A stretch of 63,704 nucleotides of DNA, counting the filler, from Octopus bimaculoides (Eukaryota), in NCBI RefSeq assembly GCF_001194135.2. It is 6 parts of 5 records of this genome, joined end to end, with 100 filler letters (N's around TTAATTAATTAA, not from the genome) between each part and the next. Parts side by side here need not be neighbours in the genome. Positions count along the whole stretch, not along the records: positions 1 to 8,808 come from NC_068985.1; positions 8,909 to 29,783 come from NC_068983.1; positions 29,884 to 40,893 come from NC_069004.1; positions 40,994 to 60,644 come from NC_068981.1; 2 more parts are not named here. The stretch is one strand, 5' to 3'. Every line of letters starts with the position of its first letter. Positions within the stretch are counted from its first letter, which is position 1. A program made the position numbers and the translations under genes. This document shows, piece by piece, positions 3,593 to 44,810 of the stretch. The notes under the pieces are model-generated. The model did no database searches. It was given only the letters and a program-made list of their open reading frames with translations, and was not told the origin of the DNA.

Positions 3593-4048
3593 AGGAGAAT
3601 TCACGAAAAAACAACAGACGAAGACAGGTGGTGTAAACAACAAATGGATGCATTAGTATAACGCTCGGGAATAGAGAAAGTCTTTAACGTTTCGAGCCTA
3701 CGCACTTCAACAGAAAGGAATACAGAAAAAATAAGAGAAACAAGGAGAGATAAAAAATATGTGTAGTGGTCAGCGATCCATCATGGCGAATGCCGGACAG
3801 AAGGATCACACAGGAGAGTTAAGAAGAAGGGGAGATAACAGTATTAGTGATCCCAAAACGAAGGTGCGTGTGTGTGAGAGAGTGTTGGTGATCTTAACGT
3901 ATGCATGTGTGTATGTAGGTGTGAAGGTGTGAAAAAGTGGGGAAGGGAGTTGGTCAGTGCTGGTGTGTGCGTGGTGGTGTGTTGTGTGATATGGTGTAGC
4001 GTGGTGTGATGTGATGGTGTTGGGGGGTGTGGGCGAGAGTATGGAAAG
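3593..4048 (-). mobile_element. PLE pseudo-LTR/3' end (family P2)
   Basis: Homologous to 44046-44430 and to the reverse complement of 26505-26675; ends on (TA)n; runs into an N gap. Confidence 0.75.
3682..3717 (-). ncRNA. minimal type I hammerhead-like motif, A6U variant
   Basis: Minus strand CUUU-CUGUUGA-A-GUGC-GUAG-GCUC-GAAAC-GUU-AAAG; stem I CUUU/AAAG, stem II has one mismatch. Manual fold only. Confidence 0.55.
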
Positions 4049-6666
4049 NNNNNNNNNNNNNNNNNNNNNNNNNNNNNNNNNNNNNNNNNNNNNNNNNNNN
4101 NNNNNNNNNNNNNNNNNNNNNNNNNNNNNNNNNNNNNNNNNNNNNNNNNNNNNNNNNNNNNNNNNNNNNNNNNNNNNNNNNNNNNNNNNNNNNNNNNNNN
4201 NNNNNNNNNNNNNNNNNNNNNNNNNNNNNNNNNNNNNNNNNNNNNNNNNNNNNNNNNNNNNNNNNNNNNNNNNNNNNNNNNNNNNNNNNNNNNNNNNNNN
4301 NNNNNNNNNNNNNNNNNNNNNNNNNNNNNNNNNNNNNNNNNNNNNNNNNNNNNNNNNNNNNNNNNNNNNNNNNNNNNNNNNNNNNNNNNNNNNNNNNNNN
4401 NNNNNNNNNNNNNNNNNNNNNNNNNNNNNNNNNNNNNNNNNNNNNNNNNNNNNNNNNNNNNNNNNNNNNNNNNNNNNNNNNNNNNNNNNNNNNNNNNNNN
4501 NNNNNNNNNNNNNNNNNNNNNNNNNNNNNNNNNNNNNNNNNNNNNNNNNNNNNNNNNNNNNNNNNNNNNNNNNNNNNNNNNNNNNNNNNNNNNNNNNNNN
4601 NNNNNNNNNNNNNNNNNNNNNNNNNNNNNNNNNNNNNNNTGTGTGTGTGTGTGTGTGTGTGTGTATGTGTGTGTGTGTGCGCGCGTGTATGCGTGTGTAA
4701 TGTATGTATGTTCTCTTTCTCTTTTTAATTTAATGTAAAATTTGACCGGCCACCTGCTTGGCAGCAAGGTGGGGAGGGAAGATATCTTGCTTTGTCCGTC
4801 ATCCTTTAAATCATAAGAAGGTCTTAGAGATTTTATAATTCCGGATATAGAGAAAGCAGTATATGTTTAAGCGAACAAGATTGATAATAATGACGTCATA
4901 CACAACCAAACATCTGCGTTAAACTCTAAAGGTTCGCTATACTTATTCAGTGAGAGTTAAATATATTGATTCTAAAATTGATACAGTAAAAGCGATGGGA
5001 TTCGATGTGGTAGTGTGCCTTTGCATAAAGAAACTGGACACGACGTTGGTAGTTCGACAGCTTATCCACTTTGATATATCAGCTTCTTTCAATCTGTTTT
5101 ATTTTCTTTTTATTTTATTTTCCTTTGGAGTTCAACCATTTGATTGCAACCATTGTTTTAAAAGAATCATATCGAGCCCTGGTACTTAGGTGAACATGTA
5201 ATTTATCGATCGTATGCACCCTGGCATACACAAACACAGACACACACACATATATATCTATACATATACACATACGTAGGTAAAAACATAAATTCACAAA
5301 CACATACTGATTTCAAGACCTACACATGTATGTGTATGCGTGTGTATTACACACACACGCATGCACACACGCATGCACACACGCACACACACACACATAC
5401 ATCCCCACCACACACACAAACAATATGTGTTTGCATAAGACAAAATTTCGGTACAGTTTACGTCCATCAAATTTCTCTTGTATGGTTTTGATCAGCCTAA
5501 GGTTACAATGTACAAAATTTTTAACCGATTATTACATGAATTATATATAATATTTTCGCTTTTTTTTATGGACTGATATTCGAGATAAACTCTAAAGTGT
5601 CGTATCGGTAGCAGAACAGGAAATCATCTCCGAAATTAATGAAATATAGAAAAACGCAGATAAATGTTATAATACTAATAATTGTCCAGTATACGCATCA
5701 AACCCCAACGTTTTACGTAAATATTACCCTAGAGCTCGGATCTGTCATCAATTCAAAATAACTGTGTTTGCTGTATCCATCATATTTGATTAATTATCCT
5801 CGTTGAAGGTACTTTAATTACAGTATCGTAAGGCACGGAAACATAAAGTAGGAAGATAATATGGCTTTGAATTACATTTACATGGTAACATCTTAAAGAC
5901 CTGAAACAAAATCCTCAAAATTCTGCAAACATCTTCAAAACTGAAGAAACTGTCATAAACCACAGTATGAATGATATCAACACACGGAACTATTTCATAT
6001 TTGCTTAACTCCTCCTCCTCCTCCTCCTCCTCCTCCTTATCATCACCATCGTTACAGCCGCTGCCGCTGTTCCGCCGCTGCCTCCATTACCTTCGCTTAT
6101 ATCGGACGATCGAATCTCTTCTGCCTTTATCAGACGATCGAATCTCTTGACTTCTGTCATCCACAGTTTAAAATTCCCAACTTCATTTATTCATTATCTG
6201 AAACTGACTTATCCAATCAAACCTTATATTTGCATATATACGACTATTTCTTTAAGAAGTTTCTCCTTTGGTCTAGTTTTTTTTCCTCCCACCCATTTTT
6301 AAAACAACTGCGAGATTTTATTTTGCACGATCAGAAATTTTTAAAAAATGACTAATGTAAATCCGCTTTTCTCATATCCAGTAGTTTTCACCAGCACTGC
6401 TGTCTCTCCTATTTGATTCAGAGTTCATTTCTCTGGCATGTCCAGATTAAGATATATTAACTCCATACTTCCAGCATGGCTTTCCTTCTACAACTTTCTG
6501 ATTTCCAGTTGATGAAGCGCTAATACCTAATCAAAATCAGCAAGTCGTTTTTGTGCAATCGTTCTCTGCTAAATCATAACGTCTCATAAATCCTGAACGT
6601 TATACAACACTTGCTTTAAACATTAAAATTCCAACCTTTGTCTGATTACTTTTGTGTGGCTCTGTA

Positions 6667-6810
6667 GGCACAGGCATGGCTGTGTGGCAAGAAGCTTGCT
6701 TCTCAACCACATGGTTCCGGGTTCAGTCCCACTCCGTTGTCCTTTTGGGCTGACCAAATCCTTGAGAGTGGATTTGGTAGATGGTAATTGACAGAAGCCC
6801 GTCGTATATA
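6667..6810 (+). mobile_element. SINE family A, tRNA-derived head
   Basis: A-box-like TGGCTGTGTGG and B-box-like GGGTTCAGTCCC, then GACCAAA..TTGAGAGTGGATTTGGTAGA; more than 10 homologues in the window. Confidence 0.8.
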
Positions 6811-7610
6811 TATGTGTGTGTGTGTGTTTGTGTGTAGTGTGTCTTTGTGTCGCAGCGACTCCATCTAAGAATATCTGAAGAAGGAATTGTATTCCGAAAT
6901 ATCATCGGACTATAGATAACTAAATCACAACAGGTGTATAGTCCATTTTTTGTATTATAGTACATTGTTGTACCATTCAACCTTTTTATTCTTTAATAAA
7001 TAATAATTCTAATTTTGACACNNNNNNNNNNNNNNNNNNNNNNNNNNNNNNNNNNNNNNNNNNNNNNNNNNNNNNNNNNNNNNNNNNNNNNNNNNNNNNN
7101 NNNNNNNNNNNNNNNNNNNNNNNNNNNNNNNNNNNNNNNNNNNNNNNNNNNNNNNNNNNNNNNNNNNNNNNNNNNNNNNNNNNNNNNNNNNNNNNNNNNN
7201 NNNNNNNNNNNNNNNNNNNNNNNNNNNNNNNNNNNNNNNNNNNNNNNNNNNNNNNNNNNNNNNNNNNNNNNNNNNNNNNNNNNNNNNNNNNNNNNNNNNN
7301 NNNNNNNNNNNNNNNNNNNNNNNNNNNNNNNNNNNNNNNNNNNNNNNNNNNNNNNNNNNNNNNNNNNNNNNNNNNNNNNNNNNNNNNNNNNNNNNNNNNN
7401 NNNNNNNNNNNNNNNNNNNNNNNNNNNNNNNNNNNNNNNNNNNNNNNNNNNNNNNNNNNNNNNNNNNNNNNNNNNNNNNNNNNNNNNNNNNNNNNNNNNN
7501 NNNNNNNNNNNNNNNNNNNNNNNNNNNNNNNNNNNNNNNNNNNNNNNNNNNNNNNNNNNNNNNNNNNNNNNNNNNNNNNNNNNNNNNNNNNNNNNNNNNN
7601 NNNNNNNNNT

Positions 7611-43387: not shown

Positions 43388-43569
43388 TACAAGTGAGTGC
43401 TGAAAAGTTCCTGGCTTCAGAGCCCTTTTACAGGGCTTCGAAAAAATGAAGGACCGCTGCAATAAGTGTTTGAATCTGAGAGGGCAATATCTTGAATAAA
43501 GTCATAATTAACTGATCCTCCTTTATTTTCTTTTACCCAAAGCCAGGAACTTTTCAACACCCCCTCGTA
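43388..43569 (+). mobile_element. mariner-derived MITE / internal-deletion derivative
   Basis: TIRs TACAAGTGAGTGCTGAAAAGTTCCTGGCTT and AAGCCAGGAACTTTTCAACACCCCCTCGTA with terminal TA; interior keeps a transposase-like end MKDRCNKCLNLRGQYLE*. Confidence 0.85.
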
Positions 43570-44045
43570 TAGTTCCTTGAAGAATTGCCCTCACAAAGCC
43601 ATTGGATCTCATTATTTAACCATATCATCTCAGCTTTTTATGCTTCACCACTGTTTGTAGGAGTTTTTGTGGGAAAATGTGTGACTGGATAGGTTTGTGA
43701 ATCAATTTATCATGTATTTAAATGTGAATTAAAAAATATAAATCCATTCTAGAGAATTTTGTTTTCTCTTGTCAAAATAAATGTACTAAAATTGGATTTG
43801 GTAACCTTTCTCTTTGACCTAATAGAGGTCATGTGTCTGCAATAGAATGACTCTCACCCAGACATAAAAAAATAGCATGTAATTAGAGTTATATAGTTAT
43901 CATCTCATTCTGGTTGGTTATAAATATCACTAACCTGTTAATCCAAGTAGTGTGTATGTATGTATATATATATATGTATATGTGGTGGTGGGGAGGTGGT
44001 GTGTGTGTGTGGTATATTTATATGTGTATTTGCATATGTGTATAT

Positions 44046-44810
44046 ATGTATGTATAGTGAGAATTTACAAAGAGATGAAGACGGGTGTGTGAACAACAAA
44101 CAGACATATTAGTTTAACGCTCAGGAAGTGAGAAAATCTTTTACGTTTCGAGCCTACGCTTTTCGACAGAAAGGAACACAGAAATAAACAGGGAGAGAAA
44201 ATAAAAAAGGTTTAGTGGCTAGTGATCTATCATGGCAAATGCCAAACAGAGGTGTCACACAGGAGAGCTAGTAAAAAGGGGAGATAATAAAGTAGTGGTG
44301 ATCCCAAGACGAAGATGCATGTGCGTGTATATGTGAGAGTGTGTATGTGCGTGTGGAAAGGGGCTGGTGACTTTGACCTGTGCATGTGTAGGTGTGTGAA
44401 TGATGGTGTGGGTGCTGGGAAGTGGTCAGTGNNNNNNNNNNGAGTAGGGTGGGATGTATAGGGATGGTGGGGTTGAAATGTGTAGGGGTGGGGTAACGAG
44501 GGAGGGGATGAAGGGAGAAGGTGGGTAGGAGTGAAGAGAAGTAGGTGTCAGAGCAAGAGAGGAGAGGTAAGTGGGAGGAAGTAGGTGTGAGAAGGAGAGA
44601 AGAGGAGGGCTAGATGAAGACGGGAGGAGAGTTGAACCCATGTGGTGCAAAGGAGTGAAGAGAGAAGATTAATTCATGTTCACAGCAACGACGGGAGTCC
44701 GAATGCCCCCTGTACAAGGACAATCCGAACACTGACAGGTGTTTTAAAGAATGACGGGTAGAGCGGAAATGGTGCGAGACTGGGGTATTGTTGCTGAGTC
44801 TGATGTCTCT
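44046..44810 (-). mobile_element. PLE 3' end: GIY-YIG C-terminus plus pseudo-LTR (family P2)
   Basis: 44810-44610 reads RDIRLSNNTPVSHHFRSTRHSLKHLSVFGLSLYRGHSDSRRCCEHELIFSLHSFAPHGFNSPPVFI*, followed by sequence homologous to 3593-4048. Confidence 0.82.
44138..44173 (-). ncRNA. minimal type I hammerhead-like motif, A6U variant
   Basis: CUUU-CUGUCGA-A-AAGC-GUAG-GCUC-GAAAC-GUA-AAAG; 10.1-11.1 pair is mismatched. Confidence 0.55.

Follow-up and report, generated by a model that had tools for sequence, protein, structure and literature searches.

The 3' ends of a very abundant family of Penelope-like retroelements in Octopus bimaculoides carry a minimal hammerhead motif in which core position 6 is fixed as U. 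Judged by the pattern of its sequence variation, this motif probably still cuts the RNA of the element, slowly and as a dimer. A6 is regarded as invariant in hammerheads and is written into hammerhead search descriptors.

Reading of the window (the whole stretch of 63,704 nucleotides analyzed here) bore out the preliminary description of three 36-nt minimal type I hammerheads, at 3682 to 3717 (minus strand; copy 1), 26551 to 26586 (plus strand; copy 2), and 44138 to 44173 (minus strand; copy 3). As described there, all three have U6 (CUGUNGA; at 3710, 26558, and 44166, respectively), position 7 is U, A, and C, and the 4-bp stem I, GAAA, and the ACGU palindrome are unbroken. Position 17, after which copy 2 is predicted to be cut (26582/26583), is U, A, and A. 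The C3-G8 pair, G5, A9, G12-A13-A14, and A15.1-U16.1 of the canonical core are present in each copy, and the extra base after A9, the G10.1-C11.1 pair, and the palindromic 15.1-16.1 of minimal hammerheads were also found. Since position 6 of the canonical core is A, and U was found there in all three copies and family-wide, the motif was classed as a variant and not as a canonical member. Searched with a 36-letter pattern that leaves positions 6, 7, and 17 unconstrained, the window gave exactly three matches, at these copies, with one mismatch apiece. None of 100 dinucleotide shuffles had any match, which rules out a chance origin. The copies are 89 to 92% identical within the motif (32, 32, and 33 of 36 positions), compared to 73 to 79% in the flanks. 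No hammerhead model was among the three Rfam matches around copy 2 (E up to 10) or among the 150 of 243 matches listed for the whole window, and exact scans of metagenome, viral, and prokaryote collections with the motif pattern gave no match. Every copy has a stem II mismatch that the others lack; in copy 3, G10.1 is lost to a private A, because of which a strict hammerhead descriptor misses this copy. The three motifs are therefore old relics, likely damaged and impaired.

The motifs terminate 5'-truncated copies of a Penelope-like retroelement at its 3' end, and the three copies share 217 to 340 bp at 75 to 77% identity. Upstream of the element end of copy 3 (44019 to 44342, minus strand) lie a pyrimidine-rich spacer with a 10-N gap (44343 to 44612, minus strand), which is probably the 3' untranslated region, and the 5'-truncated C-terminal remnant of a Penelope-type GIY-YIG endonuclease (44613 to 44807, minus strand; 65 open codons). 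The remnant is located 459 nt upstream of the motif on the same strand. It is 43% identical to protein P0027 over 51 residues (E of 7.6e-11 in the window), and its closest protein matches, P0001, P0003, P0006, and P0021, are 53 to 56% identical. A Pfam scan of the 65-residue remnant itself gave no match, and GIY-YIG was matched at E up to 0.01 in 9 of the 26 remnant matches scanned. The top-ranked match, P0002, was rejected as a repeat artifact, and no relative of the endonuclease was found in viral contigs. According to PMC8557442, a CX2-5CXXC linker precedes the C-terminal GIY-YIG in the clades Neptune and Nematis; it was found in P0027 and in L081, and the corresponding segment is missing from the window copy. 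The frame remnant is visible for copy 3 only. The element end of copy 1 (3556 to 3885, minus strand; 340 bases aligned to copy 3, 75.6% identity) continues upstream as a pyrimidine-rich tract as far as a gap at 4049, and copy 2, the shortest (26482 to 26706, plus strand), is truncated approximately 70 nt upstream of its motif.

Downstream of position 17, TA repeats, which are common in the window, were reached after 86 to 94 nt in all three copies: (TA)n starts after approximately 93 nt in copy 1 and after 94 nt in copy 2, where an assembly gap follows, and a TA/CA microsatellite starts after 86 nt in copy 3. A (TA)n target bias, as seen here in 3/3 copies, is a trait of Neptune and Nematis. 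All three were single in a check, made on truncated copies, for tandem pseudo-LTRs, which would put two motifs on one transcript. Non-LTR retrozymes, described in PMC7229834 as short noncoding sequences repeated in tandem and containing a canonical type I hammerhead, were ruled out, the copies being single and dispersed and one having an endonuclease remnant.

We surveyed the family in contigs of four public runs with four organism labels (7,250 to 11,665 contigs aligned per run) together with the three window copies; no young element with an intact frame was encountered. The difference rows listed for the four runs, 40 of 67, include no variant of position 6 (44166). From the tallies, A6 is below 1% in run X14 (no unlisted A>T places), C6 is below 1% in X12 (no unlisted A>G places), and G6 is below 1%, with no A>C in any of the four runs. 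Unlisted A>T places numbered one in X1, three in X5, and one in X12, so that A6 at a level of at least 1% is not directly excluded there. The preliminary proposal that U6 is a family-level trait thus holds across thousands of contigs, while position 7 varies, and the A6 consensus that would have spoken against it did not appear in the contigs of the four runs. Separate decay of the three copies to U6 is ruled out by U6 across the family contigs. We infer a single origin of U6, in the ancestor of the window family. In a second alignment, one run guessed to be RNA had 1,171 aligned contigs, which has no bearing on expression.

Position 7 departs from the reference in 75 to 82% of the summed depth and takes all four bases in the four runs (C, 18 to 25%; U, 27 to 43%; G, 19 to 35%; A, 4 to 28%). 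At cleavage position 17, which must not be G, we found A (65 to 86%), U (14 to 29%), and C (0.4 to 6%). G17 is below 1% in X5, the sole run with no unlisted T>C places; the remaining runs do not rule it out directly. G17 is avoided although A>G is a transition. Of the six lineage-level alleles within the 36-nt motif, five are located at position 7 or 17; by chance this would occur with a probability of 3e-6 to 0.003, a rough value that varies with the number of positions deemed free and refers to an allele set picked after the data were seen. At G5, G8, A9, G12-A14, and G10.1-C11.1, no allele exceeded the level of CpG decay among the rows listed. The only departure at C3-G8, G5, A9, G12-A13-A14, or A15.1-U16.1 in the 40 of 67 rows listed was G8>A (1.2 to 2.8%), and G10.1 was present in 98.7 to 99.4% of the depth. 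Free positions 7 and 17 within an otherwise fixed core are the pattern that selection for cleavage would leave. The restriction of variation to these positions therefore suggests that such selection continued after U6 was fixed, while later sublineages would have acquired the four bases at position 7 and A, U, or C at position 17. Of the two options considered initially, an active variant and a uniformly inactivated motif, this favors cleavage-type constraint over a dead motif.

Alternatively, U6 may have abolished or nearly abolished catalysis in the founder, the family then spreading without cleavage and the motif serving as a recognition structure (e.g., for the reverse transcriptase) or as a hitchhiker. 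We consider this unlikely, but it has several points in its favor. A6 mutants are slow in vitro (PMC7151607; PMC9901934; PMC3088659), and Naiad Penelope-like elements reached high copy numbers without canonical hammerheads, as described in PMC8557442. A second core departure, U4A, spread within a subfamily and accounts for 8.1% and 7.5% in two runs. Furthermore, motif and flanks have no significantly different density of variable sites: high-frequency variable places (2/36 in the motif versus 11/88 in the flanks) were not significantly rarer in the motif (P = 0.34). However, free variation at just these two sites, 7 and 17, together with avoidance of G17, is a signature of a catalytic core and is unexpected for hitchhiking, and the lack, in the rows listed, of alleles above CpG decay at the core positions named above also speaks against an inert motif.

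The look-alike hammerhead of protein-linked, Neptune/Nematis-type relatives (L001 to L092), one of which, L081, has a 775-aa frame with reverse transcriptase and GIY-YIG, has A6 in 84 of 89 anchored motifs, with two counted rows out of register and some loci near-duplicates, so that the 89 are not independent. They were retained from 99 matches, of which 10 were dropped (8 without anchor and 2 too short). The five non-A bases are three G and two U, one U coming from an out-of-register row. Like the window family, the relatives have the extra A after A9, a near-identical 4-bp stem II, the ACGU palindrome, a variable position 4, and a related endonuclease (43% identity over 51 residues) with the motif downstream of its end. 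In contrast to the window family, they have predominantly A6 and C7 (81/89), invariably C17 (89/89), a 3-bp stem I, and a UAAC loop, and their motif lies approximately 100 nt from the end of the frame, compared to 459 nt. Because A6 prevails in these relatives, U6 is likely derived. A covariance model built from their motif ranked copies 1 and 3 first and missed copy 2; the matches (E of about 0.5) were not significant, and homology of the motifs therefore rests on position and architecture.

Minimal type I hammerheads are known from Penelope-like elements of metazoans (Cervera and De la Pena 2014, PMC4209133). As described there, they share with the window motif a short stem I, an extra base between positions 9 and 10.1, G10.1-C11.1, a 15.1-16.1 palindrome instead of helix III, and a U-rich 5' flank, and they too are found in dispersed single copies of truncated elements, behind the RT-EN frame. 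They differ in having A6 in each of the 44 alignment rows compared, out of 56; their reported core variant is U3-A8 and not U6, and the window family has a stem II of just 4 bp. Since that search demanded a CUGANGA box, the U6 family would have been missed. The small hammerhead variants of Penelope-like elements of Lunse, Weinberg, and Breaker (2017, PMC5785218), according to their title and the review PMC6765202, resemble the window family in their short palindromic stem III and dimer cleavage. Neither of two 10-letter motifs was present in the supplement of PMC8557442. No natural A6U family was found in the literature searched, which excluded Lunse 2017. A pyrimidine in place of A6 is already known from phage Bcep176, whose A6C hammerhead is active though slow and cuts better in Mn2+ (Perreault 2011, PMC3088659; Naghdi 2020, PMC7151607). 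The phage case is a single locus with C6 and measured activity, whereas the window family is a high-copy animal retroelement with U6, known from its sequence. The Mg2+ activity of another hammerhead fell by orders of magnitude with A6C (PMC7151607). According to PMC9901934, where a type III hammerhead was scanned completely for pairwise mutants, all mutants of the CUGA turn had low activity, with the C3-G8 swap as the sole exception, and none was rescued. It is doubtful that the family has rewired the core so that U6 is near-normal in Mg2+, the role of A6 being taken over by the fixed GUAG loop, by the U-rich stem I tail, or by an element protein. In that case, a base regarded as invariant would have been exchanged in a ribozyme family with tens of thousands of members, which CUGANGA-based searches are unable to see.

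Cutting by the minimal hammerheads of Penelope elements is weak and confined to dimers (PMC4209133). By analogy to them, slow cutting by the U6 motif would proceed by pairing of two motifs via the ACGU palindrome, each cutting its partner after position 17, and would trim tandem transcripts down to unit length. Slow cutting might be enough, or its rate could be boosted by an element protein, a chaperone, or metal ions. Since the dimer architecture lets one motif cut its partner, U6 copies could also be substrates only, cut in trans via the palindrome by rare A6 copies that share their stem I. In so large a family, even an A6 share below 1% might amount to many copies, which three runs permit. 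In the U6 lineages, however, the enzyme half (core, stem II, and GAAA) is no less fixed than the substrate half, and the intact canonical hammerhead at 8378, with a different stem I, could not pair so; trans cutting is highly improbable. A huge natural U6 family that obeys the rules for positions 7 and 17 is a ready test of how much cleavage Penelope elements need. If it cuts, the hammerhead consensus needs widening, whole families being currently missed; if it does not, the hammerhead fold was retained for a noncutting role.

In folding predictions, motifs with A6, a pyrimidine at position 7, and C17 or U17 form a closed hairpin (-8.1 to -12.1 kcal/mol), compared to -6.2 to -8.4 kcal/mol for the matching U6 forms. 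The A6 motifs of the relatives also take the closed hairpin (-11.2 to -12.3 kcal/mol; three of three folded). U6 might thus be adaptive, either by removing a stable dead fold (A6-U16.1) and thereby freeing positions 7 and 17, or by making cleavage conditional on metal or protein. Consistent with this are the energies, the retention of C17 in all relatives with their predicted hairpin, and the altered metal preference caused by A6C (PMC7151607). An adaptive U6 is nevertheless very improbable: nearest-neighbor energies are blind to the tertiary core, the relatives thrive despite their A6 hairpin, and U6 has a closed fold of its own, a monomer in which it is predicted to pair with A15.1 (P of 0.45 to 0.98) in 11 of 12 combinations of positions 7 and 17. 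This closed monomer also counts against cutting by the U6 motif, as do two further predictions. The dimeric hammerhead fold was predicted at -10.9 kcal/mol, compared to -19 to -23 kcal/mol for the lowest-energy dimers. Downstream of copy 2, a CGAGC stretch (26602 to 26606, plus strand) could pair with G12 and the 3' arm of stem II and is thus predicted to compete with this stem, and copies 1 and 3 have an equivalent stretch.

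In the window, the three hammerhead motifs that the preliminary description had placed at 3682-3717 (-), 26551-26586 (+) and 44138-44173 (-) (copies 1, 2 and 3) were all found there. As it had claimed, each carries U instead of the usual A at core position 6 (U6; CUGU-N-GA), and the ACGU palindrome, GAAA and the 4-bp stem I are intact in all three. A search pattern with positions 6, 7 and 17 (the predicted cleavage position) unconstrained matched exclusively these copies across the window, whereas 0 of 100 shuffles yielded a match. The copies also have in common an extra A and a stem II of 4 bp capped by a GUAG loop, each with one private mismatch in that stem. 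They are old insertions, pairwise 75 to 77% identical over 217 to 340 bp; between copies, likeness is 89 to 92% in the motif versus 73 to 79% in the flanks. With gaps left out, one copy occurs per 19.6 kb. The build is that of Penelope minimal hammerheads, but the U6 motif lacks the canonical A6 and is therefore classed as a variant. Rfam gave no hammerhead among the matches listed for the window, nor around copy 2. Our literature search, which included octopus and cephalopod hammerheads and A6U, found no natural U6 family; Lunse 2017, outside its coverage, may report one. Judged by sequence, the motif is a new hammerhead variant and candidate ribozyme.

Copy 3 is preceded, on its own strand, by 65 open codons that encode a C-terminal GIY-YIG endonuclease fragment. 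Searched against 1.84 billion representatives, this remnant had 163 matches with E values of 0.001 or less. Of 26 matches scanned, 9 showed Pfam GIY-YIG; one match, P0027, is 43% identical to the remnant across 51 residues (E 7.6e-11). A distance of 459 nt separates the end of the remnant from C3 of copy 3, and TA repeats are reached 86 to 94 nt past position 17 in all three copies. In relatives, the endonuclease is preceded by a CX4CXXC linker, a hallmark of the Neptune and Nematis clades according to excerpts of PMC8557442, and one relative's locus (L081) holds a reverse transcriptase (RT)-endonuclease frame of 775 residues. From the remnant, the TA-repeat ends, and the relatives' linker and RT-endonuclease frame, we identify copies 1 to 3 as 5'-truncated Penelope-like copies. 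A Neptune/Nematis placement would be carried over from relatives, the linker being missing in the window copy. At 605-1404 (-) lies the disrupted C-terminus of another, different Penelope-type frame; its GIY-YIG match is weak (E 0.0037) and does not reach the Pfam cut-off.

Contigs of four public sequencing runs with four organism labels (X1, X5, X12 and X14) were aligned to copy 3 at 80% likeness, yielding 9,031, 11,665, 7,736 and 7,250 contigs. In X1, the depths summed across the core came to about 4 million (single pieces listed, 46 to 72). This sum is not copy number; taken with the window density, it suggests a family of at least tens of thousands of copies. No position-6 variant occurred among the 40 of 67 difference rows listed for the four runs, and per-run tallies of change types matched the listed rows wherever comparison was possible. 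By these tallies, G6 is below 1% in all four runs, C6 in X12, and A6 in X14, where no A>T place is unlisted; one such place in X1, three in X5 and one in X12 could in principle be position 6. A bias against core variants is an unlikely explanation for the lack of listed position-6 variants, since adjacent position 7 differs from the reference in 75 to 82% of depth. We conclude that U6 is a real, family-wide trait, as had been proposed.

Position 7 was C in 18 to 25%, U in 27 to 43%, G in 19 to 35% and A in 4 to 28% across runs, and position 17 was A in 65 to 86%, U in 14 to 29% and C in 0.4 to 6%; G17 was below 1% in X5, for which the tally gives a definite answer. The only further allele above 4% was U4A (window 44168; 8.1% in X1, 7.5% in X14, below 0.4% in X5 and X12), a subfamily with a second core departure, likely on the U6 background. 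Five of six lineage-level alleles lie at the two positions free in hammerheads, with a chance of 3e-6 to 0.003, a rough value for an allele set picked afterwards. As a counterweight, highly variable places were not significantly sparser in the motif (2 of 36) than in the flanks (11 of 88; P 0.34), so that it is the identity of the variable positions that supports the argument. Because U6 is common to sublineages differing elsewhere, the most economical history would have U6 arise before the sublineages diversified within hammerhead constraints. CpG sites of the motif showed 1 to 10% decay, as in dead copies.

The 92 relatives' loci comprised 79 of 436 confirmed metagenome stretches and 13 from prokaryote-labelled assemblies, which look like host DNA. 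These 13 (L080-L092) are Penelope-like elements inside bacterial-labelled contigs, at least nine in one assembly, likely derived from animal host DNA. About 100 nt downstream of the endonuclease, relatives carry a look-alike hammerhead with the same extra A and palindrome and a near-identical stem II. A profile search without core constraint gave 99 matches, 89 anchored, at loci that are not independent; position 6 was A in 84, G in 3 and U in 2 (one out of register), and position 4 was U in 56 and C in 32. U4C, present in most of the least damaged relatives, is another natural family-level core variant. A covariance model of 16 relatives' hammerheads ranked copies 1 and 3 top in the window, at E about 0.5 only, and missed copy 2. 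A6 was also present in all 44 rows examined of a 56-row published alignment gathered with an A6 descriptor. The relatives and these rows make U6 most likely the derived state. An intact canonical minimal hammerhead of another family (8373-8421, +; A6, 5-bp stem I, ACGU palindrome) shows that the host also has A6 motifs.

In excerpts of PMC4209133 and PMC6765202, Penelope minimal hammerheads do not cleave as monomers, and cleave weakly as palindrome-joined dimers; their proposed role is the trimming of transcripts from the element. A natural A6C hammerhead cleaves at below 0.1 per minute (PMC3088659, in part) and far better in Mn2+ (PMC7151607, in part), and CUGA-turn mutants in a full pairwise scan had low activity without rescue, as far as the available text of PMC9901934 goes. 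Given the weak dimers, slow A6C and poor CUGA-turn mutants, we favor, and consider probable, that the U6 motif would cleave slowly as a dimer, possibly assisted, and that selection would maintain this. An inert or purely structural motif is less likely, and cleavage of U6 motifs by rare A6 partners and an adaptive change are both improbable. Folding predictions offer hints only: U6 would pair with A15.1, closing the monomer; A6 versions with pyrimidines at positions 7 and 17 would form a stronger dead hairpin; a downstream CGAGC would compete with stem II; and the dimer hammerhead differs from the predicted lowest-energy dimer.

Two decayed hammerhead-like motifs (6868-6905, +; 21086-21130, -) retain stem II and GAAA, with a weak stem I or changed core. 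An abundant SINE-like repeat (44931-45300, -; 46559-46909, -; about 14 more matches; copies 67 to 87% alike) has a fragment directly upstream of copy 2. A tRNA-Asp (GTC) gene lies at 61705-61779 (-), and a 55-base stretch adjoining it is repeated at 60745-60799 beside assembly gaps.
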